Shown piece by piece: positions 5,137-63,288 of a stretch of 64,000 bases of DNA. Location of the stretch: positions 12,729 through 76,728 of the forward strand of contig CANRCR010000001.1 of assembly GCA_947629165.1 (NCBI GenBank), given 5' to 3'. The notes beneath the pieces were generated by a model, which saw only the letters and a program-made list of their open reading frames with translations, did not search any database and was not told the origin of the DNA. The position numbers were made by a program, and so were the translations under genes. Each line of letters begins with the position of its first letter. Within the stretch, counting starts at the first letter, position 1. Source of the stretch: an uncultured Bacilli bacterium. GTDB taxonomy: Bacteria > Bacillota_I > Bacilli_A > RF39 > UBA660.

Positions 5137-5159
5137 AATGGCTTCGCCATTTTTTCTTT
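5135..5159 (+). terminator. intrinsic terminator
   Basis: AAAATGGC (5135-5142) TTC GCCATTTT (5146-5153) followed by a T-run. Confidence 0.8.
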
Positions 5160-5187
5160 GCAAAAACGGTCTTTTTCGTGTTTTTTC

Positions 5188-5216
5188 TTGTTTGAAACTT
5201 AAGATTATAGTATAAT
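5188..5216 (+). promoter_or_regulatory. sigma-A type promoter of smc
   Basis: TTGTTT (5188-5193), 17 nt spacer, TATAAT (5211-5216). Confidence 0.55.
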
Positions 5217-5246
5217 TTTACTAGTGAGGATAGGAGTGTTAGACCT

Positions 5247-8680: not shown

Positions 8681-9374
8681 AAAACTAATTACGTTACTTG
8701 TATCGCTATTTATTTTATTGATTGGAATTGGTTATTCTTATGCTTTTCCTAATGATGTTCCTGTAAACGAGGGGTCTTCTTTTTCACTTTCATCGATTCC
8801 TCCTTATACGGATACACCTTATGTAGTTATTAACGAAAATAAACCTTCGTTTGAAGCGAAAGATTATAAAACGACTTCTTTTGAGTCCTATAGTGAACTT
8901 GATTCGCTTGGAAGAGCTGGAGTGGCTTTTGCAAATATCGGAGTTGATTTGATGCCGACGGAAGAACGGGGAAGTATTTCGGGGGTAAAACCTTCGGGTT
9001 GGCATACAGTTCGATATGATTTTGTCGATGGAAAATACTTATACAATCGTTGTCATTTGATCGGGTATCAATTAACTGGAGAAAATGCTAATAAACAGAA
9101 TCTTATTACGGGGACTCGGTATTTAAATGTCGAAGGAATGCTTCCTTTTGAAAATATGGTACACGATTATATCGTCGAAACAAAAAATCATGTTCTCTAT
9201 CGTGCTACTCCGATATACGAAGGAGATCAATTGCTTGCCAAAGGGGTATGGCTCGAAGCCTCCTCCGTCGAAGATCAAGGCGAAGGAATTGAATTTTCCG
9301 TATTTATTTACAATGTTCAACCGGGTGTTGTTATCGATTATGCTACTGGAGAAAGCCATGCTCGTTCCAATTAA
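8664..9374 (+). CDS. secreted/membrane-anchored DNA/RNA non-specific endonuclease (NucA / DNA-entry nuclease-like)
   Basis: ATG 8664 lies 7 nt after AAGGAG. N-terminal TM/signal helix (LITLLVSLFILLIGIGYSYA). Core LDSLGRAG...GWHTVRY...YNRCHLIGYQLTGENANKQNLITGT matches the NucA/EndA family pattern. Confidence 0.8.
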   Translation: MKRKDKKLITLLVSLFILLIGIGYSYAFPNDVPVNEGSSFSLSSIPPYTDTPYVVINENKPSFEAKDYKTTSFESYSELDSLGRAGVAFANIGVDLMPTEERGSISGVKPSGWHTVRYDFVDGKYLYNRCHLIGYQLTGENANKQNLITGTRYLNVEGMLPFENMVHDYIVETKNHVLYRATPIYEGDQLLAKGVWLEASSVEDQGEGIEFSVFIYNVQPGVVIDYATGESHARSN

Positions 9375-9397
9375 AAAGACGTATCACGTCTTTTTTT
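9373..9397. terminator. bidirectional intrinsic terminator
   Basis: AAAAAGACGT ATC ACGTCTTTTT, with an A-run on one side and a T-run on the other, between convergent genes. Confidence 0.85.
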
Positions 9398-9638
9398 AGT
9401 AATAATAGGGTCCGTAAGGTGGATAGAAAAAGTTATTGTTATTATAGTAGTAAGGATAAGGATAATAATAGTTTGGATTTTGATTTGGACGTCCATTTGC
9501 AATGGCTCCACCTGCTAGTCCTCCTAATAAAAAGGGAACGACAAAACCTCCGAAGCGATTATTATTGCCGTAGTTATTAGGTCTTTTTGCATAACGCATA
9601 TTTCTATTATTATAGTACATATTATAATTAGGATACAT
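9396..9638 (-). CDS. Asn/Tyr/Pro-rich mini-protein with central glycine-zipper hydrophobic segment (80 aa)
   Basis: AAGGGAG lies 6 nt before the ATG on the minus strand, and a terminator follows. Central FGGFVVPFLLGGLAGGAIANG is flanked by N/Y/P low-complexity arms. Confidence 0.5.
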   Translation of the reverse strand: MYPNYNMYYNNRNMRYAKRPNNYGNNNRFGGFVVPFLLGGLAGGAIANGRPNQNPNYYYPYPYYYNNNNFFYPPYGPYYY

Positions 9639-9699
9639 AATAATACTCCCTTCTATCGTATTTTATGTGTTATAATTAAAATGGTGAGGAGAATAGAAT

Positions 9700-10815
9700 A
9701 TGAATGAAAAAATAAAAACATTAGCACATACGATTGTACATTATTCGATTAATGTACAACCAAATGAAAAAGTATTGATTACTTATCAAACGGAAGAACC
9801 CAAACCTTTAGTAAAGGAACTTATTCGTGAAATTACCGAAGTAGGAGGTATTCCTTTCTATACGATGGCTGATTCTGAAATCGGTAATTTGTTGACTGAA
9901 AAAACGACCAAAGAACGGATTGAAGTATTAAAGAAACAAAAAGAGTTTGAAGTTGATCTTTACGATTCTTTTATTTCTATTTGTTACCGGGTAAATGATT
10001 ACGAAGGACATTTAATCGATAAGGATATCAATCAATCGATTGGGGAAGCTTTAATGAAATCGCAAGATATTCGTATTAACGAACGGAAATGGGTGCTTCT
10101 AAATTATCCATCGGTACTCGATGCGTATAAAGCTTCTATGAAGATTGACGAATTCCGTGATTTTGCTTTTGATGTGATGACCGTGGATTACAGTAAGATG
10201 CAACAAGATATCCGTCCGTTAAAAGAATTGATGGACAAGACCGATAAGGTGCATATCGTGGCTCCCGGGACTGATCTTACTTTTTCGATTAAAGGCATGG
10301 GTAGTATCCCTTGTGTCGGAGATAAAAATATTCCGGATGGAGAACTTTATTCGGCTCCTGTTCGCGATAGTGTTAATGGGACGATTACTTACAATACACC
10401 GAGTCCTTATCAAGGTATGATTTTCCAACATGTAAAATTAACTTTTAAAGATGGTAAAATTATTGAAGCGGAAGCCGATAGTCATAACGAAGAGTTAAAT
10501 GAAATATTCAATACGGATGAAGGTGCTCGGTATGTCGGTGAGTTCTCGCTCGGTTTTAATCCGAAGATTCGTTATCCGATGGGCGATATCTTGTACGATG
10601 AAAAGATTCTAGGAAGTTTGCATTTTACTCCTGGACGTGCCTACAAGGATTGTTACAATGGCAATGATTCGGCTATTCACTGGGATATGGTGTTGATTCA
10701 ACGTAAAGATTATGGAGGCGGAGAAATCTACTTTGACGATGTTTTAATTCGTAAAGATGGTGTTTTTGTTCTTCCTGAATTAGAACCATTAAATTATGGT
10801 TATAAAAACGATTAA
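9700..10815 (+). CDS. aminopeptidase, M29 (AmpS/PepS) family
   Basis: 371 aa. The N-terminal LAHTIVHYSINVQPNEKVLI and the overall pattern are typical of thermophilic-metalloprotease (M29) aminopeptidases. GGTGAGGAG RBS; TGTGTTATAAT extended -10 at 9667-9676. Confidence 0.8.
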   Translation: MNEKIKTLAHTIVHYSINVQPNEKVLITYQTEEPKPLVKELIREITEVGGIPFYTMADSEIGNLLTEKTTKERIEVLKKQKEFEVDLYDSFISICYRVNDYEGHLIDKDINQSIGEALMKSQDIRINERKWVLLNYPSVLDAYKASMKIDEFRDFAFDVMTVDYSKMQQDIRPLKELMDKTDKVHIVAPGTDLTFSIKGMGSIPCVGDKNIPDGELYSAPVRDSVNGTITYNTPSPYQGMIFQHVKLTFKDGKIIEAEADSHNEELNEIFNTDEGARYVGEFSLGFNPKIRYPMGDILYDEKILGSLHFTPGRAYKDCYNGNDSAIHWDMVLIQRKDYGGGEIYFDDVLIRKDGVFVLPELEPLNYGYKND

Positions 10816-10832
10816 AGAAAAGAGGTATTTAA

Positions 10833-11033
10833 ATGAAAGAAGTTGTTTTAAAAGTGGACGGGATGCATTGTGCAGGATGTGAAAATCGCATTCAGAATGC
10901 AGTATCTCTAATCGATGGAGTAACGAAGGTTCAAGCCGATCATACTAATGGCGAAGTAAAAGTTACAATGGAAAAAGAAGTGCTTGACCAAGTAAAAGAG
11001 AAGATTCAAGATCTTGACTTTCAAGTAAAATAA
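10833..11033 (+). CDS. heavy-metal-associated domain protein (CopZ-like metallochaperone)
   Basis: 66 aa with a GMHCAGC (MxCxxC) metal-binding motif in a beta-alpha-beta-beta-alpha-beta sized protein. Confidence 0.85.
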   Translation: MKEVVLKVDGMHCAGCENRIQNAVSLIDGVTKVQADHTNGEVKVTMEKEVLDQVKEKIQDLDFQVK

Positions 11034-11054
11034 AAAAGCCGTAGGGCTTTTTTT
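11032..11054. terminator. bidirectional intrinsic terminator
   Basis: AAAAAAGCC GTAG GGCTTTTTTT between convergent genes. Confidence 0.8.
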
Positions 11055-11979
11055 ATTGGTTTACAACGCGGAATAAGTTAATACTCGGTCGATTAAAAAG
11101 ACGAAATTTATAGTTACTCGTTCCTAATCCACCAGAAATATAAAGATCGGTATCTTTTACACGGTAGTAGGGTTCATTGTATTTCTTGGCTCCTTTTACC
11201 GTTACAATTGGAGGTAAGAAGGGGATGCGAACTTGTCCATTATGGGAGTGTCCCGCTAGGGCTAAATCGACGTTGTATTTGGCTAGAATCGAAGTGATAT
11301 CATCCGGTTCGTGAAATAGACTAATCGTAAAAATATTCTTTTTACTATCTTCTTGTTTAAAATAAGAAAAGGCCTGATCAATATCATTTTGGTACTGTCC
11401 ACTATCACTCATACCGGTAATTAAAATTGGATCGTACCCTTGATAATAAATAAGATCATAGGTATTATCGAGATATTGGAAACCGCCTTCTTCGATGATT
11501 TGTCGAAATCCATCGTAGAGATAATCGTGATTTCCACTTACGGCATATTTTCCAATCTTGGCTTCCATTTGGGACAACGCGGTCTTTACTTCATTTGTTA
11601 CTTCTTCGGTAACATTGGTATCTTTATCGATTAAGTCTCCGGTAAAAACTAAAATATCTGGTCTTAACTCATTAATCTTTTTTACTAAGTTTTGTAAATA
11701 CGCGTTATCGATGGTCGACCCATAGTGTAAATCTGAAAATTGAACTATTTTTAATCCGTAAAAGGATGCCGGTAATTTACTGTTTTCTACTTTGTATTCT
11801 CGTACGACTAGGCCACTTGTTGCAATAAAACGACTGTAGTAGAGTAGTGCAAAAATTGCAAGAATGGCACCTACTATACCTATCATAATTTTCTTTTTTT
11901 GTTTCTTTTTCTTTTCTTTTTCTCGTACTTCTTGTTCCTCTTTTTCTTTTTGAAGAGTGCGTTCTTCTCGACTCATCAT
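11053..11979 (-). CDS. membrane-anchored metallophosphoesterase (YkuE/calcineurin-like)
   Basis: Lys/Glu-rich N-terminus plus a TM helix. Phosphoesterase motifs SDLHYG, GDLIDK, GNHDY, GHSHNGQ. Confidence 0.85.
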   Translation of the reverse strand: MMSREERTLQKEKEEQEVREKEKKKKQKKKIMIGIVGAILAIFALLYYSRFIATSGLVVREYKVENSKLPASFYGLKIVQFSDLHYGSTIDNAYLQNLVKKINELRPDILVFTGDLIDKDTNVTEEVTNEVKTALSQMEAKIGKYAVSGNHDYLYDGFRQIIEEGGFQYLDNTYDLIYYQGYDPILITGMSDSGQYQNDIDQAFSYFKQEDSKKNIFTISLFHEPDDITSILAKYNVDLALAGHSHNGQVRIPFLPPIVTVKGAKKYNEPYYRVKDTDLYISGGLGTSNYKFRLFNRPSINLFRVVNQ

Positions 11980-41778: not shown

Positions 41779-41830
41779 TATTACTCCATTTAAAAAAATG
41801 ATAGAATAATATTAAAGAGATGTGATTAAA

Positions 41831-44347
41831 ATGCTAAAAAAAGAACAACTAACCATTTTAGATATCGATCAAATTAAAAATTTGAATGTTTTAAAAAATA
41901 ATTTATCTTATACTTTAACTGATTTTGCTTTACTTACGGGAGCCGCCGTTTCGTCTCGATCTTCTCAGGGATATTGTTGGACTAAAAATCATTCTTTGGG
42001 AACGGGACGTGTGATGGTTATTTCTTCGAGTGGTCAAATCTCTTCTAAAGATGCTTTTTCGAGACATGGCGTTATTCGTCCGATTATTTTACCGGGGGAA
42101 ATTACACAAACTATTTTAGCCAACGAAGAAGAAAAAGATGGCATTATTTCCTTTGGCTATTATCCACAAGATGTGGTAAGTAGTTCCTTTGCCGAAAAGT
42201 TAGAAAAACTTTTTGTAAGTAATCAACTAAAATCGACGAATCATTTTTATACGATTGATGCACGTCCTTTTGATGATGAAGAATCCTCTTTTGTTCCTTG
42301 TCGTTTGATGGAATATGAATATCAAGGAAGAAAATTTATACGTGTGAAATCTAATTATGCTTCGAATAATGTTACTTTGTCGGATCAGCAGAAACATAAA
42401 AATCATTTTTTCGAATGGGTTGAGGTAAGTCCCGTCACTTGGATTGTCGATCACGAAAGTGGAGCCCTTATTGCTGAAAAAGGATTGCTTTCAGGAATTT
42501 CTTTTCATTCTGAAAAAGATTATCAAGGGGACTTTTCTAATACCAATTTACAGTCTTTTTTCGATCAATTCTTATTTGATAATTTATTTGAAAAAACACC
42601 TTATGAAAAAGAAGAAACAATCAAAGAATATGTTCCTTTACAAAAACCATCTATTGAAGATTTTTCGAGTTATCAAAAATTTCGCCAAACGAGTTCCAAA
42701 GAATTGAAAAATGTTTTAAATAGTGTAATCAATATCTATTATTTATTAGAACCACTTTCTATGTATTCCTCTACTAAATCGGATGGTACTCCTATATTGT
42801 GGAATGATGCTATGAAGATTTCGTTCAGTTTTCTTTATGTTGGATTACAAAAGGATCCGGATTTAAAAGATCTCTTTGAACAATATCAAATTCATTTAAA
42901 AGATTTGTTTATTCCCGTTCATTGTGATAATAAGTTGTTGTTACAAGGTTCGAAAGATCCGATTACGCCGGATTTACGAAAGGATATCTACGATCGGGCT
43001 TTTAAACCTTATCTTATGAATTTTCAAAAGGCGTTATTATCTATTTACAATCAGTATACAGATGTTCCTTATTGTTTGATTACCCCGATATTACTTTGTT
43101 ATTCTTTTTCTCATCTTTCTATGAAACCATTGTTTCGTGATTTATTGATAGCTAAAGGAATAATGAAAGAAAATGATAAATTAGAGGAGGTTGCCTTCTT
43201 TAAAGATATGCGTAACCGCGTTGTAAGTGAAGAAATATCTTCGATTATTCAAGGTATTATTCCTTCGAATATAGAAACAATTACTACTATTCCACCTAAA
43301 CGTCCAGCTGTTACTACGGAATCTTCCTCTTCGACGAATCCTCGTCGTCCTACTTTGAAACATCGCGGGAACGATATATTTTTGAAATACGGACATTTTT
43401 TAGGAGATAAAGAATATCTTACGAATCCTGCCGTCGGGCGAGAAAATGAATTACAAAGTCTCATGCTTGGACTTTTAACCCAAGAAAAATCCGTCGCATT
43501 GGTGGGACCTCCAGGCGTTGGAAAGACGGCACTTGTCGAAGGTCTTGCTTATTTAATTACTCGGGGAGAAGTTCCGAAGGCACTTCGTGATTATGATATT
43601 TTAAAAGTAAATACTTCTAGTTTAATTAGTGGAACTATTTATCGTGGTCAGTTTGAAGAAAGAGTAGAGAAGTTATTACATGAAATTGAACGAGATCATC
43701 ATGTTATTCTTTTTATTGATGAGTTACATACGGTTATTGGCTCTGGAAAAGGGGAACAATCTTCCTTAGATTTTGCTAATTTATTAAAACCATATCTCGA
43801 TCGGGGACAAGTAAAGATTATTGGTGCTACTACTTTGGATGAATATGAACGTTATATTGAACAAGATACGGCGTTGAAAAGAAGATTCAAAAAAGTAAAA
43901 GTGAAAGAACCGACGGATGAAGTTATGCTTCAGATTTTGGATAGTAGTCTCGAACGATTAAGTAAGAAAACAAAAATAGAGGTTGCTTTTAACGAAGAAG
44001 AAAAAGATTTATTGTTTACGACTTTGTTACGGGTTACAGAAAAGGCACGTAGAGTTTATGATGATCCTTTGTATAATCCGGATTTAGCTTTGTCGATTGT
44101 CGATACCGCTTTTGCGTATGCTACTTTAAAAAATGCTTCTCAAGTCGAGATGGAACATTTTGCGGAAGCGATTCGTTTAGAAGAGCGAATTTATGAAAGT
44201 ACGCGTAAGGGACTTGCGCAATTTTTGATTGATCAGTATACGGAATTAAAAGGATCTTGTGAAATGGAGAATATTCCTTCTACCGAAGAAAAACCGAAAT
44301 GTAAAGTTATTTCTTTTGCATTCTTATTTCCTAAGAAGCCTGAATAA
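41831..44347 (+). CDS. AAA+ ATPase with a single ClpA/ClpB-type NBD1 and a large unknown N-terminal region
   Basis: C-terminal third: GRENELQSLMLGLL...LVGPPGVGKTALVEGLA (Walker A, nt 43505-43528)...YRGQFEERVEKLL...ILFIDELHTVIGSG...IIGATTLDEYERYIEQDTALKRRF, close by eye to Clp/Hsp100 NBD1. There is no second NBD. The N-terminal ~520 aa are unassigned. Confidence 0.75.
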   Translation: MLKKEQLTILDIDQIKNLNVLKNNLSYTLTDFALLTGAAVSSRSSQGYCWTKNHSLGTGRVMVISSSGQISSKDAFSRHGVIRPIILPGEITQTILANEEEKDGIISFGYYPQDVVSSSFAEKLEKLFVSNQLKSTNHFYTIDARPFDDEESSFVPCRLMEYEYQGRKFIRVKSNYASNNVTLSDQQKHKNHFFEWVEVSPVTWIVDHESGALIAEKGLLSGISFHSEKDYQGDFSNTNLQSFFDQFLFDNLFEKTPYEKEETIKEYVPLQKPSIEDFSSYQKFRQTSSKELKNVLNSVINIYYLLEPLSMYSSTKSDGTPILWNDAMKISFSFLYVGLQKDPDLKDLFEQYQIHLKDLFIPVHCDNKLLLQGSKDPITPDLRKDIYDRAFKPYLMNFQKALLSIYNQYTDVPYCLITPILLCYSFSHLSMKPLFRDLLIAKGIMKENDKLEEVAFFKDMRNRVVSEEISSIIQGIIPSNIETITTIPPKRPAVTTESSSSTNPRRPTLKHRGNDIFLKYGHFLGDKEYLTNPAVGRENELQSLMLGLLTQEKSVALVGPPGVGKTALVEGLAYLITRGEVPKALRDYDILKVNTSSLISGTIYRGQFEERVEKLLHEIERDHHVILFIDELHTVIGSGKGEQSSLDFANLLKPYLDRGQVKIIGATTLDEYERYIEQDTALKRRFKKVKVKEPTDEVMLQILDSSLERLSKKTKIEVAFNEEEKDLLFTTLLRVTEKARRVYDDPLYNPDLALSIVDTAFAYATLKNASQVEMEHFAEAIRLEERIYESTRKGLAQFLIDQYTELKGSCEMENIPSTEEKPKCKVISFAFLFPKKPE

Positions 44348-53966: not shown

Positions 53967-54068
53967 ACGATTTTTTTCTACTGTAAAATAATGTACAACT
54001 TTAGGAAATGTATCCTAAACACTTTGTTTTTGTAGTATAATTTGTTAAAGAAACGGGAGTTGAAAATA

Positions 54069-55058
54069 ATGCAATCAATGCTTACTTTAAATAAAGTTAT
54101 TGCCGTTGTCATGATCGGATTTTTGTCGTCCGTTGTTTTTGGACTTATTCTAATTCCAATTTTAAAAAGAATGCATATTGGTCAACGTATCAGTGCTTAT
54201 GTTGGAGAAAATCATCGTAAAAAAGAGGGTACTCCAACCATGGGTGGACTTATTTTTATTGTACCTACGGTTATTACAACACTTATATTGATTGCTCTTG
54301 GGTACCTGACATTAACGGATGATTTAGGACTGGTATTAATTGTTTTTGTCGGTTATGCTGTACTTGGTTTTTTGGATGACTATCTATCTATTAAGCGAAA
54401 AGAAAATGATGGTTTAACCGCTCCTCAAAAGTTTTTTGGGCAATTGGTGATGGCTTTAATTGTCTTTTACCTTTACATGAAAGGTGGAAATAGTACTGCT
54501 TTTGTCGTCAGTACACTTGGAATCAATATCGAAATGGGTTGGTTCTACGGGGTATTTATTCTTTTCTTGTTAATTGGTAGTAGTAATGCCGTGAATTTAA
54601 CCGATGGATTAGATGGACTTGCCGGTGGTTTATCCGCGATTGCTTTTATTGCCTTCAGTTTGATTTCCATGATGGTTGGATTTACGGATCTCGGTTTATT
54701 TACTTTCTTATTAGTTGGTAGTTTACTTGGATTTTTAGTTTATAATACACATCCTGCCAAAGTCTTTATGGGCGATACTGGTTCTCTTAGTTTAGGAGCC
54801 GTTATGGCGGTAATTGCAATTTTAGTTCACCGGGAACTTACGCTTTTAGTAGTTGCCTTTGTATTTGTTATTGAAACGTTAAGTGTTATCTTACAAGTAT
54901 TTTGGCTCGTTGTTTTCCATAAAAAGTTATTTTTGATGACGCCGTTACATCATCATTTTGAAAAATTAGGATGGGAAGAAAACGATATTGTTAAACTCTT
55001 TTGGGTCGTTGGTTTAATTCTTGCTATGAGTGGTATTTACTTTGGTATTTGGATGTAA
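54069..55058 (+). CDS. mraY: phospho-N-acetylmuramoyl-pentapeptide transferase
   Basis: ATG 54069 follows GGGAG. KEGTPTMGG, NAVNLTDGLDGLA, MGDTGSL, HHHFE motifs. Confidence 0.95.
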   Translation: MQSMLTLNKVIAVVMIGFLSSVVFGLILIPILKRMHIGQRISAYVGENHRKKEGTPTMGGLIFIVPTVITTLILIALGYLTLTDDLGLVLIVFVGYAVLGFLDDYLSIKRKENDGLTAPQKFFGQLVMALIVFYLYMKGGNSTAFVVSTLGINIEMGWFYGVFILFLLIGSSNAVNLTDGLDGLAGGLSAIAFIAFSLISMMVGFTDLGLFTFLLVGSLLGFLVYNTHPAKVFMGDTGSLSLGAVMAVIAILVHRELTLLVVAFVFVIETLSVILQVFWLVVFHKKLFLMTPLHHHFEKLGWEENDIVKLFWVVGLILAMSGIYFGIWM

Positions 55059-55070
55059 GAAAGGATAATT

Positions 55071-56159
55071 ATGAAAAGAAAAAAATGGGATAAGGTTCTT
55101 TTTATCGCCGTTTTGTTCTTAGTATTATTTGGACTTGTAATGATTTATTCCGCTTCTAGTATTTGGGCGGAATATAAATTTGGCGATCCCTTTCGATACG
55201 TCAAAAGTCAATCATTATTTATTGCAATCGGAATCCTATTAATGTATACAGTAGCAAAAATAGATTACACATGGTATTACAAAAAGACAAACCTTATATT
55301 AAGTGTTTGTCTTTTATTATTAGTTTTGGTTTTAATTCCTGGTATTGGAAGTGTTCGAAATGGAAGCCGTAGTTGGTTTGGAATTGGCTCTTTTGGAATA
55401 CAACCTTCCGAATTTGTAAAACTTGCCTTAATTATTTTTACAGCAAAATATTTATCGAAAAGTAATAAATTTGTAAGAGATTGGAAACGAGGAGTAATTC
55501 CGATTTTAGTTATTTTGTTTGTGATTTTTGGATTAATTATGTTACAACCGGATTTTGGTACAGGAATGATTATCGTCGTCAGTATTATTGCAATGCTTTT
55601 TATTGCTGGTGTAGATATGCGTTTTTTCTTAGGCTTAGGAGCGTTGGGCGTAGTAGGAATTGTCGCCTTAATTTTAGTTGCGCCTTATCGAATGGACCGT
55701 ATCACTTCCTTTATAAATCCCTGGAGTGATCCTTTAGGTACTGGATTTCAAATTATTCAAAGTTTATATGCGATTGGTCCAGGTGGATTACTTGGGATGG
55801 GATTTATGAATTCAAGACAGAAACATTTTTATTTACCTGAACCTCAAACCGATTTTATTTTTTCTATTATTTCTGAAGAGTTTGGCGTATTAGGTGTTAT
55901 ACTCGTAAGTGCTCTTTTTTTAATCATATTATGGCGAGGAATTCGAATAGCACTTAATACCAAGGATTCATTTGCAAAATATTTAGCTTTTGGAATGATT
56001 TTTCAAATTATTATTCAATCGATTATGAATTTGATGGTAGTTGTTGGTCTTATTCCCGTTACTGGTGTAACGCTTCCTTTTCTCAGTTATGGAGGAAGTA
56101 GTTTATTGGTAAGTATGGTAAGTATTGGGATTATTTTAAATATTTCAAAAAATAATTAA
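55071..56159 (+). CDS. SEDS family peptidoglycan glycosyltransferase (FtsW/SpoVE)
   Basis: 10-TM protein with SRSWFGIGSFGIQPSEF, QPDFGT, TDFIFSIISEEFG, LPFLSYGGSS. Confidence 0.9.
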   Translation: MKRKKWDKVLFIAVLFLVLFGLVMIYSASSIWAEYKFGDPFRYVKSQSLFIAIGILLMYTVAKIDYTWYYKKTNLILSVCLLLLVLVLIPGIGSVRNGSRSWFGIGSFGIQPSEFVKLALIIFTAKYLSKSNKFVRDWKRGVIPILVILFVIFGLIMLQPDFGTGMIIVVSIIAMLFIAGVDMRFFLGLGALGVVGIVALILVAPYRMDRITSFINPWSDPLGTGFQIIQSLYAIGPGGLLGMGFMNSRQKHFYLPEPQTDFIFSIISEEFGVLGVILVSALFLIILWRGIRIALNTKDSFAKYLAFGMIFQIIIQSIMNLMVVVGLIPVTGVTLPFLSYGGSSLLVSMVSIGIILNISKNN

Positions 56160-56194: not shown

Positions 56195-56584
56195 TTGATT
56201 GTAATCACAGTAGGGGGATTTTAGGATGAACAATATTATATTAAACGAAGAATTAAAAATTGAAAATATGATTTATGAAGTAAGAGGAAAGCAAGTTATG
56301 TTAGACTCTGATTTGGCAAAATTGTATGGAGTAGAAACAAAAAGAATCAATGAGGCAGTTAGAAGAAATTTTGAAAAATTTCCAGAGAGATTTTGTTTTA
56401 AATTAAGTAAAAATGAGTATCTTAATCTTCTAAGGTCGCAAAATGCGACCTTAGAACTAAAACGTGGTCAATATTCAAAGTACTTACCTCGTGTATTTAC
56501 CGAACAAGGAGTGGCAATGCTTGCAACAATTTTAAAATCAGATGTTGCAACGCAAGTTAGTATTGCCATAATGGATGCTTTTGT
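56193..56584 (+). repeat. copy A of a mosaic tandem duplication (partner 57271..57668)
   Basis: Block 1: 56193-56361 vs 57271-57439, 169 bp with 4 mismatches (hand count). It covers the 5' UTR, RBS and first 45 codons. Block 2: 56481-56584 vs 57565-57668, 104 bp with 3 mismatches. The segment between the blocks and everything downstream is strongly diverged. Confidence 0.9.
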
Positions 56585-57113
56585 AACGATGCGAAAATAT
56601 ATTTCTAATGAATTGATTCCGCAAAAATATATTAACAATTTAGTGATAAAACATGATAATGAGATTAAATTGTTACAAGAATCTTTTGCTAAATTTGAAG
56701 AAAAGAAAAAAGATAATGAAATTTATTTTAATGGACAAATCTATGATGCTTATTCAAAAATCATGGCTATTTTAAAAGAAGCACACGACAACATAATTAT
56801 TATTGATAACTATGCAGATAAAGTTGTTTTAGATATGATTAGGAATCTAAAAATTGATGTCACTATAATATGTAAAAGTAATGGCTTATTAAAAGGAATA
56901 GATATAAATAAATATCAACAACAATATAATAATCTAAAAGTGATTTATAGTAATAATTTTCATGATCGGTATATTATATTAGATCAAAATATAATTTATC
57001 ATTGTGGGGCTTCTCTTAACTATGCAGGTAGTAAAACTTTTTCAATTAACAAATTAGAAGATAAATTTGTAAAAGATAGTTTAATGAAATATGTACTTGC
57101 AATTATAGAATAA
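56226..57113 (+). CDS. ORF6N (KilA-N-like) DNA-binding domain protein with C-terminal degenerate PLD/HKD-like domain, paralog A
   Basis: N-terminus IYEVRGKQVMLDSDLAKLYGVETKRINEAV...FPERF...LRSQ...YLPRVFTEQGVAMLATILKSD.A.QVSIAIMDAF is the ORF6N pattern. C-terminus IIIIDNYAD...FHDRYIILDQNIIYHCGASLN (nt 56961-57020). GGGGGA RBS. Confidence 0.72.
   Translation: MNNIILNEELKIENMIYEVRGKQVMLDSDLAKLYGVETKRINEAVRRNFEKFPERFCFKLSKNEYLNLLRSQNATLELKRGQYSKYLPRVFTEQGVAMLATILKSDVATQVSIAIMDAFVTMRKYISNELIPQKYINNLVIKHDNEIKLLQESFAKFEEKKKDNEIYFNGQIYDAYSKIMAILKEAHDNIIIIDNYADKVVLDMIRNLKIDVTIICKSNGLLKGIDINKYQQQYNNLKVIYSNNFHDRYIILDQNIIYHCGASLNYAGSKTFSINKLEDKFVKDSLMKYVLAIIE
56428..56456 (+). repeat. perfect intragenic inverted repeat (13-bp arms, 3-nt loop) in paralog A
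   Basis: TTCTAAGGTCGCA AAA TGCGACCTTAGAA, encoding LRSQNATLE. Confidence 0.95.
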
Positions 57114-57270: not shown

Positions 57271-57668
57271 TTTTGATTGTAATCACAGTAGGGGGATTTT
57301 AGGATGAACAATATTATATTAAACGAAGAATTAAAAATTGAAAATATGATTTACGAAGTAAGAGGAAAGCAAGTAATGCTAGACTCTGATTTGGCAAAAT
57401 TGTATGGAGTAGAAACTAAAAGAATCAATGAGGCAGTTAAAAACAATCCAGATAAATTTCCTGAAAGATTCTCTTGGTTTTTAAATGACGATGAATGGAA
57501 TTTTTTAAGGTCGAAATTTTCGACCTTAAAAACTCATGAATTTGGAAGAGGAACGCACAGAAAATACTTACCTCGTGTATTTACCGAACAAGGAGTAGCC
57601 ATGCTTGCAACAATTTTAAAATCAGATGTTGCAACGCAAGTTAGTATTGCTATAATGGATGCTTTTGT
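57271..57668 (+). repeat. copy B of the mosaic tandem duplication (partner 56193..56584)
   Basis: See copy A. The offset is 1078 nt for block 1 and 1084 nt for block 2. Confidence 0.9.
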
Positions 57669-58185
57669 TCATATGCGTCATTATATTTTAGAAAATAAAG
57701 ATATTTATCAATCTTTAAATAATATAAATAACAAATTGATCGAGCATGATGAAAAAATTAATTATATATTTTCTATTTTTGATAAAAAAGAAAAAATATT
57801 TTTACCTGGAGAAAGTTATGATGCCTATTCTGAAATTATAGATATCTTAAATACAGCTAAAAAAGAAATAATTATAATCGATAGTTATGCTGATAAAACG
57901 ATGTTAGATTTTATTCGAAATATTAATTCTAAAATTATTCTTATAACGAGTGATAAGGCAAAACTAGGTTCCTTCGAATTGGAAAAATTTAATAGACAGT
58001 ATAATAAATTAAAAGTTATAAAGAACAATACTTTTCATGATCGTTATTTTATAATCGATAGAAATATTTTTTTTCATATCGGGACTTCTTTAAATTATAT
58101 TGGAGCAAAGGTTTTTAGTATCAACCGATTAGAAGATGATTTTATTAAGAAAATTTTATTAGATTATATACTTGAAATAATTTAA
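57304..58185 (+). CDS. ORF6N (KilA-N-like) DNA-binding domain protein with C-terminal degenerate PLD/HKD-like domain, paralog B
   Basis: Same architecture as paralog A. C-terminus IIIIDSYAD...FHDRYFIIDRNIFFHIGTSLN (nt 58036-58095). The C-terminal halves are only about 40 percent identical by eye. Confidence 0.72.
   Translation: MNNIILNEELKIENMIYEVRGKQVMLDSDLAKLYGVETKRINEAVKNNPDKFPERFSWFLNDDEWNFLRSKFSTLKTHEFGRGTHRKYLPRVFTEQGVAMLATILKSDVATQVSIAIMDAFVHMRHYILENKDIYQSLNNINNKLIEHDEKINYIFSIFDKKEKIFLPGESYDAYSEIIDILNTAKKEIIIIDSYADKTMLDFIRNINSKIILITSDKAKLGSFELEKFNRQYNKLKVIKNNTFHDRYFIIDRNIFFHIGTSLNYIGAKVFSINRLEDDFIKKILLDYILEII
57502..57532 (+). repeat. perfect 31-nt intragenic palindrome (15-bp arms) in paralog B
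   Basis: TTTTTAAGGTCGAAA T TTTCGACCTTAAAAA, encoding FLRSKFSTLKT. Same relative position as the palindrome in paralog A. Confidence 0.95.
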
Positions 58186-58235: not shown

Positions 58236-58262
58236 AAAGGGTGCAAAAATGTGCCTTTTTTG
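58236..58262 (+). terminator. intrinsic terminator (second of two)
   Basis: AAAGGGTGCA AAAA TGTGCCTTT (two G-U pairs) followed by TTTTT. Confidence 0.55.
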
Positions 58263-58271
58263 GTGTTTTCA

Positions 58272-58300
58272 TTGACGAATGATACTTTTGACATTATAAT
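58272..58300 (+). promoter_or_regulatory. near-consensus sigma-A promoter of the vWA-AAA+-ankyrin operon
   Basis: TTGACG (58272-58277), 17 nt spacer, TATAAT (58295-58300). Confidence 0.75.
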
Positions 58301-58325
58301 ATATCCCTACTAGGGAGGAATGTGT

Positions 58326-60785
58326 ATGCGGTTTTGGCATTTTGTAAAAAATCAATTTAGCAATGCAAAAAACGAAAGTAATTCCTCTTCTATAGAAAAG
58401 AAAGAAGATTTAAGTAAGTCCGAATTCGATACTAAAGAACCAATACAAAAAAAAGAAATACCTAATGAACAATTAGCCGAATCGACTCCATTACCCAACC
58501 AAGCAAATCAAGAAAATGGAAGCGATACAAAAAATCAAGATGAAACTCAAAACCAAAGTGAGCAACAAAGTACAGAAACTTCACAAGAAAAAGATAGTCA
58601 ACAAGGTCAAAATAGCCAACAAGGGGCAAGTGGCCAGGAACCCACTAAAGAACAAGCACAAAAAGATTCACAAAATCAAAGTGAACAACAAGAATCAACC
58701 AGTGAACGGAAACAAGACGGTCAGCAAGATCAATCCGGACAATCGAAAGCAACTAGAAATCAGGAACAAACGGAAACACAAAGTCATGAAAATCAAACAA
58801 GTTCAACTGAAGAGCAAGGACAAACTGATTCCCAAAGTTCAAGTGAACAAGAACAAAGTACTCAATCTAATTCTTTGGAGGATTATATAGAAATTAGAAT
58901 TCTAAGAGATGAAATTCCCCAACCACCTCAACCAAATGAACAAAATCAAGATAATTCAAATCAGAATTCTGATTTAAATAGTCCTTCACCATCTTCTTCA
59001 TTTCCATCATTACCTCAAATGGGTCATCAAGTAATTGAAATTGACTTACGTAGTAATCCAAATCAACTTCCTGAACATAGTGAAGATTTATCCCAATCAA
59101 CTGAATCCCAAGAATCATCTAGTCAACAAGAACAAGATGAACAACAAAGTCAGGATGATCAACAGGAACAAAGTAGTCAACCAGGTCAAAGTGGACAGCA
59201 GGAACAAAGTGGTCAACAAGATCATGTAGGACAACAGGAACAAGGTGGGCAACAAGGACAAAGCGGTCAATCAGGTCAAAGCGAACAGCAAGACCAAAGT
59301 AGTCAACAAGATCAAGTAGGACAACAGGAACAAGGTGGGCAACTAGGTCAAAGTGGACAGCAAGGACAAAGTAGTCAATCAGGTCAGGCTGGACAACAGG
59401 GACAAAGTAGTCAATCAGGTCAGGTTGGACAACAGGGACAAAGTGGGCAACCAGGTCAAATTGGACAACAAGGACAAAGCAGTCAATCGGGTCAAATTGG
59501 ACAGCAAAGTCAAAGTAGTCAACCAGGCCAAGATGGACCATCAGGACAAAGTGATCAACAAAGTCAAGGTAATCAAAGTTCTTCTGTGAAATCTAGTGGT
59601 CAAAGTGGACAAGATTCACAAATAGAGACTTCTTCTCAAGGAACATCCAGTAATCCAAATGAAACTCAGAATACTTCTATAGAGGGAGAATCTTCTTCTG
59701 AAATAGAAACCAGTGATTCAAATACTTTGGATAGTCAACAATCTTCTGAAGCAACGGGAGAACGTACTCGTAATTCTACCCAACAAGGAGAAGGAATGTC
59801 ATCCTCTAAGAAAACTATCGAAAAAAAATCCCAACCTAAAATACGAGATCATCTCAAGGGAGAACCAACACCATTAGATCTTTTAAAAGAGCAAATTGAA
59901 AAGCCACAACGCTCGGAAGCAACAAATCAATTTTTAGGGCAACTAGAACAATTACCATCTTTTAAAGAAAGAAGTCATGGAGGAAGTTATTCCATCGATA
60001 CGGAAAGTGATAGTGAAGTTCCAGAAAGTGTTGTTCGAACATTGATATCTAAATTTTTAAATCAACGCTTTTGTAAAAGAGTTAGCGATTTAAATATACG
60101 TAGTAACGCTTTAGAAAAAGCCGATGGATTTTATAAATGGGATATTAAAAAAATTGTTCGTCATTTGGAAACGGCTCAATTGACAAAAGTCATTAATGAT
60201 AAATATGGCTATCAATATGCGCAAGGAAAATATGAATCAGTTCCATTATCTTTCTACTTTGATTTATCGGGAAGTATGAGTAGTTATACCAATATGTTAG
60301 CCGTTATGGCAATCGAACTATTAAAGAAGGATGTCAAGGTTTTAGTTGGATTTAATCAAACCGTTCATGTTCAAATTGAACAAATACCAAAACAGTTATC
60401 GGTTTCTGAACTAGCTGATTTTTTAACTGCAGCGGGATCTTATTATTCCGATGAAGAAAGGTATCAACAAAAGTCAAAGGGACAAATCAAGTATCGTGTA
60501 GTAGATGAAGATTTAGATACTTATTTGATTGATAAGAAAGCAGAAAAATGTGTTGTTTTTGCCGATTGTGATCCACTATATTCGGTGGTACGTCTATCCC
60601 AAAAGGCACAAGTTTATTGGTTTAACTTTGAATCTAATTTTAGTCGATCGGATTTGTCGGATTATAAAGGATTTGTTTATGAAGTACATTGTATGAAAGA
60701 TATTCAAAAAGGACTTATTAAAGTAAATGAAAATCGTTTTGAGGCATTGACTTATATCGATAATCCAAAAGTATTAAGGAGGTAA
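58326..60785 (+). CDS. von Willebrand factor A (vWA) domain protein with ~560 aa Gln/Ser/Gly/Glu-rich disordered N-terminal region
   Basis: ATG 58326 lies 7 nt after GGGAGG (the track start 58320 overlaps the RBS). No signal peptide or TM helix. The C-terminal ~230 aa have a hydrophobic strand followed by the MIDAS motif VPLSFYFDLSGSMSS (DxSxS at nt 60261-60275). Confidence 0.75.
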   Translation: MRFWHFVKNQFSNAKNESNSSSIEKKEDLSKSEFDTKEPIQKKEIPNEQLAESTPLPNQANQENGSDTKNQDETQNQSEQQSTETSQEKDSQQGQNSQQGASGQEPTKEQAQKDSQNQSEQQESTSERKQDGQQDQSGQSKATRNQEQTETQSHENQTSSTEEQGQTDSQSSSEQEQSTQSNSLEDYIEIRILRDEIPQPPQPNEQNQDNSNQNSDLNSPSPSSSFPSLPQMGHQVIEIDLRSNPNQLPEHSEDLSQSTESQESSSQQEQDEQQSQDDQQEQSSQPGQSGQQEQSGQQDHVGQQEQGGQQGQSGQSGQSEQQDQSSQQDQVGQQEQGGQLGQSGQQGQSSQSGQAGQQGQSSQSGQVGQQGQSGQPGQIGQQGQSSQSGQIGQQSQSSQPGQDGPSGQSDQQSQGNQSSSVKSSGQSGQDSQIETSSQGTSSNPNETQNTSIEGESSSEIETSDSNTLDSQQSSEATGERTRNSTQQGEGMSSSKKTIEKKSQPKIRDHLKGEPTPLDLLKEQIEKPQRSEATNQFLGQLEQLPSFKERSHGGSYSIDTESDSEVPESVVRTLISKFLNQRFCKRVSDLNIRSNALEKADGFYKWDIKKIVRHLETAQLTKVINDKYGYQYAQGKYESVPLSFYFDLSGSMSSYTNMLAVMAIELLKKDVKVLVGFNQTVHVQIEQIPKQLSVSELADFLTAAGSYYSDEERYQQKSKGQIKYRVVDEDLDTYLIDKKAEKCVVFADCDPLYSVVRLSQKAQVYWFNFESNFSRSDLSDYKGFVYEVHCMKDIQKGLIKVNENRFEALTYIDNPKVLRR
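59214..59343 (+). repeat. 40-nt direct repeat at 90-bp spacing within the Q-rich coding region
   Basis: 59214-59253 and 59304-59343 (caacaagatca[t/a]gtaggacaacaggaacaaggtgggcaac) differ at 1 position. Confidence 0.9.
59364..59543 (+). repeat. five tandem 36-bp (12-codon) coding repeats, unit GQSSQSGQ(A/V/I)GQQ
   Basis: Units start at 59364, 59400, 59436, 59472 and 59508. They are in frame with the CDS. The first two differ at one base and later units are progressively degenerate. Confidence 0.9.
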
Positions 60786-60791
60786 CAAAAT

Positions 60792-62582
60792 ATGAAATTA
60801 ATAACAATCGAAGAATTAAAGAAAGAAATTGAGGCAACGGGATATTATCCAACGGAGGAGTTACTATATGACACATTCAATGCGCTTTCAATTTTTCAAC
60901 AAGATCAAATTAATCCCGGACAAGATGTGTTTGCGCTTTGTTTAGAGGGACCTCCTGGAGCTGGTAAAACGGCTTTTGCAAAAATGTATCGTAATATAGT
61001 AAGTCAACAATTTTTTGATCCTGTCGAATTAGTTGAATACCAATGCGATCCGGCAACTTCGGAAGAAAAATTAAAAGAAGATATTCGTATTGTGGCGGTT
61101 GTTACACGCGATGGAAAAGAAGTTATTATTCCGGGTATTTTGGTAAAAACGGTCCAAATGTTAAATGAAGGAAAAAGGGTAATTCTTTTTATTGATGAAT
61201 ATGATAAAGCAAGAGAAGAGACTGATTCTTTCTTCTTACAGTTCTTACAAGATGGAAAATTAAATGCGGTTCAGTCGGGAGATATGGAGATTAAACCGGA
61301 ATATAAAAATAATTTGCAAGTTATCTTTTGTAAAAATGATGCCCGCGAAGAATTATCTGGACCACTTACAAGACGTCTTCGTATTTTAAGACTCGATTAT
61401 ATGGAACCTAGTTTATTTTATACCGTTGCTAAACGTGTTTTAATAGACGATGCAAAAGAAAAAGTGGAAGAGTCTTTACTTAACTTAGTAACTTTGATGT
61501 ATCAAAATGCCTATGAACAAAAAGATGTATATAATCGGTTACCTGCTTGTTCTGAAATGCTTATTGCGATTGAAGACGCTAACCGTTTAATGACGCTTGC
61601 AAATGCACCTAAATACATACTTTATCGAACCATTGTTAAGAATATGTTTAAAAATAAAGACGATTTAGTTACTTTCGAATCAAATTTATCAAAATCAAGA
61701 AATAAAGATAAGAAATTAGCCGAGTTAATTAAAGAAATGCAACAAGGGGAAGAATCACTACCTCTAGCAGAACAAAAGAAAGAGTTAAATTCTTTAATGG
61801 CACAAACTGTTTTTGAAGGAGAAGCTAGCAAATTTGCTGAAAAGATTAAAGAAGTTGAGGAACTTATATCAAAGTATGAAAAAGAATTTGAGGCTATGCG
61901 GGTTCGTTATCAAAATCAACAAGAACAAGAAATTGCACGAATTCGTTTAGAAAGCGGACAATTAATAGCCAATGGATTACGTCCTAAAACGATTGGTAAT
62001 TTTGAAGATGAATCTTCTCAAGTAAAACGTGGAAAGAATATTTTCGATATTTCCGAAGGAGAGGATTGGGTCGATGTAGCAACGATGGTAATACCAAATT
62101 TATCACATACTTTGTTGATTGAAAAATTAATTGAATTTGGAACTGATTTGGTTATTTACGAAAATGGTGTTTTACTTCAAGATACGGATAATCATAAGAT
62201 GATTGTTTTCAAAGAATTGGATGAAAATAATCAACCACGTTATCGAATGATGGCAAATCATGCCGTAATTCCATCTACTTATTTAGCGGATGTTTACGCT
62301 TTTGTCGATTTCTCAAAGCAAGTTCTTAGTAGTCAAACGACTTCTCCTGGTATTCGCCAAGATCCGTATTATGAGATAAATGCTTTGGTATACAACGATG
62401 TACCATTAACTTACGATACCGTCGATGATCATGTATATCATGTTGAAATTCGTGATCGTGTTCAAAATGTTGATTCTTTAGGAACACTTGCCAGTCAAAT
62501 GACTTGTGAAAATTTAGCTTCGGTTCAAGCAGCGCACGATAAGTTAATGAACGAACCAAAGAAGGTGTATGTTCATGCTTAG
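60792..62582 (+). CDS. AAA+ ATPase (MoxR / AAA_5-like) with extended coiled-coil and unknown C-terminal domain
   Basis: Walker A LEGPPGAGKTAFAK (nt 60948-60971) and Walker B RVILFIDEYDKA. Conserved Arg-rich LTRRLRIL. About 300 further aa, including a Glu/Lys-rich helical stretch. Starts 7 nt after the vWA stop with an AGGAGG RBS. Confidence 0.8.
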   Translation: MKLITIEELKKEIEATGYYPTEELLYDTFNALSIFQQDQINPGQDVFALCLEGPPGAGKTAFAKMYRNIVSQQFFDPVELVEYQCDPATSEEKLKEDIRIVAVVTRDGKEVIIPGILVKTVQMLNEGKRVILFIDEYDKAREETDSFFLQFLQDGKLNAVQSGDMEIKPEYKNNLQVIFCKNDAREELSGPLTRRLRILRLDYMEPSLFYTVAKRVLIDDAKEKVEESLLNLVTLMYQNAYEQKDVYNRLPACSEMLIAIEDANRLMTLANAPKYILYRTIVKNMFKNKDDLVTFESNLSKSRNKDKKLAELIKEMQQGEESLPLAEQKKELNSLMAQTVFEGEASKFAEKIKEVEELISKYEKEFEAMRVRYQNQQEQEIARIRLESGQLIANGLRPKTIGNFEDESSQVKRGKNIFDISEGEDWVDVATMVIPNLSHTLLIEKLIEFGTDLVIYENGVLLQDTDNHKMIVFKELDENNQPRYRMMANHAVIPSTYLADVYAFVDFSKQVLSSQTTSPGIRQDPYYEINALVYNDVPLTYDTVDDHVYHVEIRDRVQNVDSLGTLASQMTCENLASVQAAHDKLMNEPKKVYVHA

Positions 62583-63288
62583 TATCGATTTAAGTGAAAT
62601 AGAACAACAAAAAGAAAGTGTTTTAGCAAGTTTTGAATTAAATCAGGCTTCTTGTAAACAGTTCCAAGATCAAATTGCTTCGGTTTCAGAACTTGAAAAA
62701 GAACAATTAGGGGAACAACTTTACGATTTATTATCGAAACGAACTTTTGATGATACGGATGGTGCCGATCAAGTAAGAGATTTGATTTTAGCAGGGGCAG
62801 ATATATCTTATTTGCCTGAGCAAGGAGATTTTCCTTTGTATATTTGTGCTCGTAACAATTATTTTAAATCTTTTTGCTATCTATTAAGAGCAGGGGCTCC
62901 GCTTGACCAAGTGAATGCTATGGGATCGAGTCCTATTATGATTAGTGCCATCAAAGGGAACCAAGATATTTTAGTATTTTTATTACTTTTAGGAGCTAAT
63001 GTCAATCTTCGTGATGAATATGGTAATAATGCTATCATGTATGCTCGTAAGTATAACCGAAAAGAATGTTTTGAGTTATTATTACTTCATGGGGCTTATA
63101 TCAATAATCGTAATTTTGAAGGAAAAACAATATTTGATATTGAGACAGGAAAAAGTGCATTTCCACTTCCGATTGACATTCCTCCCGAATTTATAAAACC
63201 AGAAGAACGAGTAACTTACGGCGATCTAAAAAAGTTAGTTTATAATGCGCACGACGAGGTGGCTCGTGTAAAGGGTAGGCTTTCATAA
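62575..63288 (+). CDS. ankyrin-repeat protein
   Basis: ATG 62575 lies 7 nt after GAAGGTG and overlaps the AAA+ stop (ATGCTTAG); alternative ATG at 62569. Three to four ANK-like repeats (e.g. GSSPIMISAIKGNQDILVFLLLLGANVNLRD, GNNAIMYARKYNRKECFELLLLHGAYINNRN). Confidence 0.8.
   Translation: MLSIDLSEIEQQKESVLASFELNQASCKQFQDQIASVSELEKEQLGEQLYDLLSKRTFDDTDGADQVRDLILAGADISYLPEQGDFPLYICARNNYFKSFCYLLRAGAPLDQVNAMGSSPIMISAIKGNQDILVFLLLLGANVNLRDEYGNNAIMYARKYNRKECFELLLLHGAYINNRNFEGKTIFDIETGKSAFPLPIDIPPEFIKPEERVTYGDLKKLVYNAHDEVARVKGRLS

Follow-up and report, generated by a model that had tools for sequence, protein, structure and literature searches.

The window analyzed here, a 64,000-nt stretch of contig CANRCR010000001.1 (assembly GCA_947629165.1) from an uncultured Bacilli bacterium, contains a gene (58326..60785, + strand) whose product of 819 amino acids (aa) has three parts: a conserved N-terminal helix, a hypervariable linker of ~530 aa and a von Willebrand factor A (vWA)-like domain of ~280 aa with a DxSGS motif of the metal ion-dependent adhesion site (MIDAS) type. 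An AAA_5 ATPase is encoded directly downstream. On balance, we favor the interpretation that the linker is a flexible acidic tether, which joins the N-terminal helix to the vWA-like MIDAS domain that partners the ATPase, and not a conserved prion domain. An initial annotation of this DNA had described the linker as prion-like and proposed a regulated aggregation switch. What is new here is an AAA_5/vWA-type system whose vWA subunit combines a hypervariable acidic disordered linker with an invariant N-terminal Trp motif.

The open reading frame (ORF) listed for this region occupies 58320..60785 on the + strand (821 aa), with an alternative ATG at 58320. The ATG at 58326, which gives 819 aa, is most likely the start: a GGGAGG sequence (58313-58318) precedes it by 7 nt, the N termini of homologs read M-[RK]-F-W, and the same start was chosen in an independent gene call. 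Two residue numberings are in use, one for the 821-aa product (ATG at 58320) and one for the 819-aa product (ATG at 58326).

A search with the C-terminal 320 residues identified 168 proteins; their identity to the window protein is at most ~63%, and all of them lack a Pfam domain and carry uninformative names. When 1.84 billion protein representatives were searched exhaustively with a profile, only 129 matched; in these the core was always C-terminal and protein length reached 1,114 aa. The family is seen only in uncultured gut Bacilli; it is small and unannotated, and its core has no Pfam model. Full-length members share an N-terminal tip, a low-complexity linker and a core of ~280 aa. In the window protein the tip, MRFWHFVKNQFSNAK (58326..58370, + strand), is predicted to form a helix at residues 2-15 (predicted local distance difference test score, or pLDDT, about 74). 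It reads M-R-F-W-x-F-V-K, as compared to a family consensus of M-[RK]-[FIV]-W-[KR]-[FY]-[IV]-K in which M1 and W4 are invariant in 49 aligned members. At the other end of the protein, the conserved core (residues 541-819; 59946..60782, + strand) carries the family's invariant PLSFYFDxSGSM and EKxVxFxDxD motifs.

Between these ends lies a disordered, low-complexity linker (residues 13-540; 58362..59945, + strand) that is unalignable between orthologs. Two syntenic orthologs, L001 and L002, come from rabbit-gut metagenome-assembled genomes labeled 'uncultured Bacilli', where the gene order is ftsW, ORF6N, vWA-like gene, AAA, ankyrin (Ank) and flavoprotein. Their cores align with that of the window protein, with most positions invariant, whereas the linkers do not align. 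In 78 full-length members the linker spans 70-526 aa (median 211), with a median net charge per residue (NCPR) of -0.20 and a median fraction of charged residues (FCR) of 0.38; its Q content varies from 2 to 32%, N from 2 to 28% and S from 5 to 27%. Among 37 representatives at 50% identity, linkers of 104-819 aa were net negative in 35, and the median NCPR was -0.17 to -0.20 across both sets. The linker stays hydrophilic, net negative and unstructured, and only these traits are maintained: selection in the family keeps acidity, hydrophilicity and disorder, not Q/N content. Thus, with family Q of 2-32%, a median NCPR of about -0.2 and a median FCR of about 0.38, the Q/N-rich character noted in the initial annotation is not a conserved trait.

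The window linker itself (residues 13-540) carries a net charge of -52, with an FCR of 0.22, an NCPR of -0.10 and a mean hydropathy of 0.30, which places it well on the disordered side of the boundary in a charge-hydropathy analysis. In a full-length AlphaFold model built from the 49-sequence alignment, nearly all of residues 19-529 fell in segments with pLDDT below 50, and secondary structure was assigned to none of these residues. Both analyses bear out the earlier description of this region as long, low in complexity and predicted to be disordered.

Also as described earlier, the stretch is rich in Gln, Ser, Gly and Glu. Residues 31-560 (821-aa numbering) contain 24.0% Q, 18.7% S, 10.2% E and 9.4% G, followed by 5.3% D, 5.3% T, 4.9% N and 4.7% P; the other long ORFs in the window contain 3.5% Q, 6.4% S and 5.6% G, and the difference is far beyond chance. 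Within the linker is an in-frame tandem array (59088..59627, + strand) with a base period of 18 nt and higher periods of 36, 72, 90 and 108 nt. The five in-frame 36-bp units reported at 59364..59543 were recovered as four good copies, GQS(S/G)Q(S/P)GQ(A/V/I)GQQ, and a degenerate fifth, SQSSQPGQDGPS; together they form the end of the longer array. The program TRF assigned a 36-bp period to 59246-59567 (8.9 copies, 75% matches) and a 90-bp period to 59160-59372 (2.4 copies, 83% matches). The reported 40-nt repeat at 59214/59304 is also present (39 of 40 positions identical), and the longest exact repeat is 28 nt.

At the protein level, residues 284-415 (nt 59175-59570) consist of [G/S/E/D]-Q-x triplets; Q occupies position 2 in 42 of 44 and G occupies position 1 in 28 of 44. 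This periodicity accounts for matches of the linker to collagen-like proteins, all of them below threshold: Pfam Collagen (23.9 bits, cutoff 27.2), SclB (47 bits, cutoff 325) and collagen-like phage tail fibre PHROGs. The triplet array is a lineage-specific expansion within the linker and probably not a conserved functional prion module. Several short ORFs of 64-140 aa also occur in the repeat region, in frames other than that of the gene or on the opposite strand, at 58516-58890, 59035-59229 and 59353-59589 on the + strand and at 58894-59118 and 59119-59541 on the - strand. They encode low-complexity peptides rich in K, N and V or in V, D, F and L, and look like by-products of periodic DNA rather than genes.

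Two short hydrophobic islands interrupt the linker, as the initial annotation had noted. Island 1, DYIEIRILRDEIPQPP (residues 186-201 in the 819-aa numbering; 58881..58928, + strand), is lineage-specific and unique to the window, and island 2, HQVIEIDLRSNPNQLP (residues 234-249 in the same numbering; 59025..59072, + strand), is partly retained in ortholog L002 as DLQSLPKQITEHS. Together with LDLL at residue 517, they are the sole hydrophobic clusters of the linker. Both islands are real, but the pattern they were said to share extends in register to only 4 of 14 residues (21 of 42 nt), and apart from the partial copy of island 2 in one ortholog they are missing from the other aligned family members. 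We therefore rejected the idea that they are a recent duplication or a conserved pair of motifs. Neither island is predicted by AlphaFold to fold. In the islands, which lie 48 residues apart and contain a 'ΦIEI' pattern, hydrophobic residues alternate with charged ones (YIEIRIL, VIEIDL), a pattern known from amphipathic beta-strands.

Variation in linker length could be followed at the level of strains. One species-level group comprises 25 protein clusters whose 284-aa cores are 98.9-100% identical and whose linkers range from 154 to 238 aa, a spread that corresponds to gain or loss of a repeat unit. Thus, in-frame slippage or duplication of repeats lengthens and shortens the linker, and the length polymorphism predicted from the repeats holds for the family. 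In the window's own lineage, however, the only second strain shows none. That strain is represented by an independently assembled contig (L010), which is 99.84% identical to the window over 5,496 bp, with nine substitutions, all outside the gene, and no indel; it carries an identical 2,460-bp gene and encodes an identical 819-aa protein. A metagenome scan for other strains of the window's species found nothing above 73% identity, and two orthologs, whose ATPases show 63 and 69% identity, were all that a genome scan yielded, leaving L010 alone in the same species. Natural length variants of the linker thus exist between strains. Bacterial disordered regions of 500-800 residues are rare, and here one lies within a defined, tractable architecture.

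The alpha/beta, vWA-like part of the core (residues 640-800) was modeled with pLDDT of 82-91. A MIDAS-like DLSGS motif (D646, S648 and S650; 60261..60275, + strand) follows the first core strand (641-646), and a second acidic motif (D747 and D749; nt 60564-60572, + strand) follows the strand at 741-746. These five residues occupy the positions of MIDAS residues in vWA domains and are invariant in 49 sequences; the MIDAS Thr was not assignable. When two independent structure models were searched with Foldseek, the vWA folds among the top matches were TFIIH p34/p44, CMG2, VWF A1, Ro60/Rsr, a bacterial vWA (4fx5) and NorD of a NorQD complex (rank 13 in one search). We conclude from the motifs and the models that the core is probably vWA-like with a MIDAS-type site. 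Searches with the core against Pfam, NCBIfam, PADLOC, PHROGs and PDB (by phmmer and with the family profile) were empty, and the only matches, low-complexity or collagen-like, were to the linker. One remote member (P0315, 752 aa) has the same core, with the tip and linker replaced by an N-terminal SLOG/LOG domain ('Lysine_decarbox', E 2e-27); this fusion might hint at nucleotide-related signaling.

The adjoining gene (60792..62582, + strand) encodes a 596-aa AAA+ ATPase that matches Pfam AAA_5 (PF07728) with an E value of 3.2e-12 (47 bits, cutoff 22). Walker A is GPPGAGKT (residues 53-60), invariant except at Ala57 and Thr60, and Walker B is FIDEYD (residues 133-138), with D135-E136 invariant. 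The AAA module is followed by an undescribed C-terminal region of ~400 aa. Across ~300 clusters, the length of this ATPase is strikingly constant at 585-613 aa. As the family profile yielded only weak P-loop matches in PDB (MgsA, Lon and ClpB), the ATPase subfamily is not assignable by sequence. The vWA-like gene was accompanied by the AAA_5 gene in every locus examined, in keeping with the original description of a MIDAS-bearing domain with an AAA+ neighbor.

A third gene completes most loci. In the window it encodes a 239-aa ankyrin-repeat protein (62569..63288, + strand) and shares its first 14 nt with the end of the ATPase gene; an ankyrin gene occupies this place in most other loci. In one relative (L020), a 301-aa LRR_5 protein (4409-5314; E 1.6e-121) replaces it, and in another (L021) an ankyrin gene is followed by two genes for LRR_5-Ank fusion proteins (8913-11386). 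The most distant pairs, L004 and L006, lack a third gene and still conserve W4 of the tip, which argues that the partner of the tip is not the ankyrin protein. Large LRR_5 (BspA-type) proteins are encoded divergently upstream in five loci (L003 243-7066, L007 4292-7357, L008 1502-7866, L009 608-7444 and L022 681-4340); three N-termini inspected (L003 and L022) had no obvious signal peptide. This arrangement suggests a functional link between the vWA-like/AAA_5 system and cytoplasmic LRR and Ank repeat proteins. A small conserved gene of 138-262 aa also lies directly upstream of the vWA-like gene in several loci (L003 7197-7985, L009 7571-7987 and L022 4487-4915); it is absent from the window, and the two copies scanned (L003 and L022) had no Pfam match.

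Starting from the architecture, conservation pattern, disorder and gene linkage observed here, we infer a tether function, an anchor and a ligand as follows. The vWA-like protein would act as a co-factor of the AAA_5 ATPase, with the ankyrin protein, or an LRR_5 protein in some relatives, as the third partner. As a tether or spacer, the linker would allow the MIDAS domain to reach out while the N-terminal helix is held elsewhere, whether on the ATPase, the core or the membrane. A role of this kind has been proposed for the D/E-rich region ahead of the MIDAS domain in Rea1/midasin and for the acidic linker ahead of the integrin-I domain in ChlD. The MIDAS domain should capture a ligand that bears a carboxylate; in addition, the acidic chain might occupy the MIDAS site of its own protein in competition with ligands. 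Remodeling of the bound ligand or complex would fall to the ATPase, and the Ank or LRR_5 protein would act as an adaptor, substrate or sensor.

Several observations weigh against this interpretation. The window protein, 25 homologs, the family profile and remote members gave no vWA sequence-profile match in Pfam, NCBIfam or PDB, and none of the remote members found in the 1.84-billion-protein search, examined as a bridge to annotated vWA proteins, had a vWA Pfam domain. The Foldseek matches to vWA folds are marginal (E 1e-3 to 3e-2, TM 0.2-0.44). The 'vWA' label of the initial annotation is thus backed by the invariant DxSGS motif and these fold matches but by no sequence match. The amphipathicity of the tip is moderate (hydrophobic moment 0.52, z about 1 compared to shuffles; net charge +2), so that membrane binding is just one option for the anchor. 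The window linker is also an outlier among the 78 full-length members, being the longest, the lowest in charge density (FCR 0.22) and the highest in Gly, and a separate property might therefore have arisen in its low-charge Q/G/S array. Finally, the near-perfect periodicity of Q (42 of 44 triplets) may reflect the ancestry of the repeat.

One alternative, which we consider unlikely, is that the locus is an NTP-dependent conflict (anti-phage) module in which the fast-evolving acidic chain would serve as bait, decoy or mimic of nucleic acid, with the Ank and LRR_5 proteins as sensors. Directly upstream of the vWA-like gene are two tandem paralogous ORF6N genes (56226-57113 and 57304-58185, + strand; 295 and 293 aa), both of which match the PADLOC defence candidate PDC-S05 over their full length (E about 1e-92). 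As third components the loci encode Ank, signal-less LRR_5 and LRR_5-Ank fusion proteins, which are repeat proteins of a type characteristic of sensors; one relative fuses a SLOG/LOG domain to the core, recombinases or DUF87 occur near some loci and the linker diversifies at the level of strains. Moreover, ternary conflict systems built on MoxR and vWA proteins are a known theme, but the third component here falls outside their four described classes (PMC7159879). The vWA-like protein has no PADLOC match and the ATPase only weak, partial ones, and no effector domain was recognized. In addition, the locus is syntenic between related species and sits among housekeeping genes. We found no relatives in viral contigs (IMG/VR), phage records (GenBank) or plasmids (PLSDB), which also makes a phage or plasmid origin unlikely.

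Somewhat less likely still is a prion-like or condensate switch, in which the Q/N-rich segment self-associates, the AAA+ protein assembles or disassembles it and the vWA domain serves as a valency or adaptor module. In censuses of Q/N-rich prion-like domains, the criterion is at least 30 Q/N per 80 residues. Residues 242-433 of the window protein lie above this density, with a maximum of 37, as do stretches in 21 of 79 family members; the triplet array (residues 284-415) has an FCR of only 0.07 and a Q+N content of 42%, and an AAA+ partner is always present. However, the syntenic orthologs L001 and L002 stay below the census density, with 26 and 19 Q/N per 80 residues, and the family linkers are highly charged polyanions or polyampholytes. 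Every 80-residue segment that reaches the census density holds at least 13 charged residues, and the flanks of the array are strongly acidic. A PAPA-like score, whose weights may differ from those of the original tool, reached a maximum of 0.044 (residues 344-384), below the 0.05 cutoff, and ranged from -0.1 to -0.4 elsewhere; with the same weights, no family linker scored above 0.05. AAA_5-type ATPases are not known to be disaggregases.

The prion-like label therefore survives only in part: the Q/N density of residues 242-433 supports it, and the PAPA-like score and the orthologs do not. Judged from the predictions, which comprised AlphaFold pLDDT, charge-hydropathy analysis, the Q/N census and the PAPA-like score, nothing appears to argue for a prion or condensate role of the Q/G/S array. 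Nor did we find anything that points to a regulated aggregation switch, and a variable acidic tether fits the comparative data better. Whichever interpretation holds, composition alone is not a sufficient basis for the term 'prion-like'. If the switch did operate, the locus would offer a regulated bacterial condensate or prion-like system.

Tethering and self-association could also be combined, a possibility that we regard as less probable than either of the two alternatives above. The locus would then encode a split bacterial 'mini-midasin', an AAA_5 ring that works on a MIDAS domain tethered by a hypervariable acidic chain of 70-819 aa to an N-terminal anchor helix with an invariant Trp; in the window lineage, the low-charge Q/G/S array would add self-association under the control of the ATPase. 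Such self-association might, for example, build a condensate or scaffold where the membrane or the division site is, or take part in a conflict response with Ank or LRR_5 sensors.

Much more doubtful is a rigid spacer, a collagen-like or polyproline-II rod in which the G-Q-x array forms a triple helix or a polyproline-II bundle. The three-residue periodicity, with Q and G in preferred positions, and the sub-threshold matches to collagen, SclB and tail fibre profiles are of the kind that this proposal predicts, but 16 of 44 triplets lack Gly, and G-x-y runs continue unbroken for seven triplets at most. Almost no Pro is present, no trimerisation domain was identified, the AlphaFold model shows no structure and the orthologs lack the array. 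We rejected the collagen-like reading because the Gly register is interrupted. Lastly, repeats are hard to assemble and contig L010 has low coverage (2.6x), but a mis-assembled repeat or a spuriously open, non-coding low-complexity stretch is almost certainly not the explanation: the identical gene lies on an independent contig that differs at nine flanking positions, without a frameshift, the frame is open over 1.6 kb and connects the conserved tip and core, an arrangement seen in dozens of full-length relatives, and the repeat periods are all multiples of 3.

The vWA-like, ATPase and ankyrin genes follow one another almost without spacing and look like one transcription unit. Upstream of the unit are a sigma-70-like promoter (TTGACG-17 nt-TATAAT; 58272..58300, + strand; 11 of 12 matches) and, before it, a terminator-like hairpin (58236-58259). 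The ORF6N pair lies between this region and a set of cell-wall and division genes, named by eye, that includes two ORFs resembling penicillin-binding proteins, a MraY-like ORF (54042-55058) and an FtsW-like ORF (55071-56159). The N-terminal ~410-nt segments of the two ORF6N genes are ~85% identical in DNA, and the syntenic loci of L001 and L002 have one ORF6N gene each in the region listed, compared to two in the window. Division genes also occur near other family loci. The distant pairs of L004 (8001-12344) and L006 (6783-11211), which are ~44% identical and lack Ank, adjoin an FtsW/RodA-family gene and lie near a MraY-like gene; in L020 a SepF gene (7220-7602) is near the pair, and the window operon likewise follows mraY-ftsW. 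The FtsW/MraY/SepF neighborhood could reflect conserved synteny or a link to division. Elsewhere in the window, an 841-aa ORF (41822-44347, + strand) has a C-terminal AAA module (Pfam AAA, E 3.5e-15) with weak nSTAND-like matches (nSTAND1, E 7.7e-6) and an uncharacterized N-terminal 530 aa.

One bacterial example of a Q/N-rich prion-forming domain is that of Clostridium botulinum Rho. The window linker shares with such domains a low-complexity segment of census-type Q/N density, but here the segment lies within a strongly acidic chain, its Q/N content is not conserved and the PAPA-like score does not reach the threshold. In FtsZ, the C-terminal linker varies in length and sequence, its disorder matters more than its sequence and it ends in a short conserved peptide that binds partners. 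It provides an analogy only, since FtsZ is an unrelated protein and the polarity is opposite, with the conserved peptide at the N terminus in the family described here.

Similar in gene organization are the MoxR/AAA_5-vWA pairs RavA-ViaA, CbbQ-CbbO and NorQ-NorD, in which an operonic AAA_5-type ATPase accompanies a vWA protein with a C-terminal MIDAS. In contrast to these, the core in our family matches no vWA profile, and a disordered segment takes the place of a folded N-terminal part. Its occurrence also sets the family apart from MoxR-vWA systems, as all members found are from uncultured gut Bacilli. Kaur et al. (2020) described ternary conflict systems that likewise combine an AAA_5-type/vWA pair with a third component, but the third gene here encodes Ank or LRR_5 proteins, not VMAP, iSTAND, FtsH or a beta-propeller (PMC7159879). 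Flexible charged linkers have been described in MoxR-vWA systems (PMC7159879).

Our preference for a flexible acidic tether draws on the fact that a layout of acidic segment, MIDAS domain and AAA+ motor is known from Rea1/midasin and from ChlD. In ChlD, the AAA+ domain is followed by a linker rich in acidic residues and then by an integrin-I/vWA domain whose MIDAS site is functional (PMC6604950). ChlD/BchD (Mg-chelatase subunit D) has an acidic, proline-containing linker before its C-terminal integrin-I/vWA domain and cooperates with an AAA+ motor, an arrangement that the window protein would share. The ChlD linker, however, is short and fused to an AAA+-like N-domain, whereas in our family a helix of ~15 residues precedes linkers of 70-819 aa, and the loci have no tetrapyrrole context.

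In the tail of Rea1/midasin, a linker is followed by a flexible, unresolved D/E-rich region and then by the MIDAS domain (PMC6286127). The window protein likewise has a long, flexible acidic segment (NCPR -0.10) directly N-terminal to a MIDAS-like domain, and in Rea1/midasin the MIDAS domain works with a dynein-related AAA+ ring of the Pfam AAA_5 type. The differences are considerable. The counterpart of the tail is here a polypeptide in its own right, of 819 aa and with a conserved helix at its N terminus, and the ATPase has a single AAA module encoded by a separate gene, compared to six fused modules in midasin. The linker is Q/S/G-rich in the window lineage and hypervariable in length, the system is bacterial and lacks a context of ribosome assembly, and homology at the sequence level was not detected. 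If the tether interpretation is correct, this family would provide a simple bacterial model for acidic linkers of the midasin and ChlD type.

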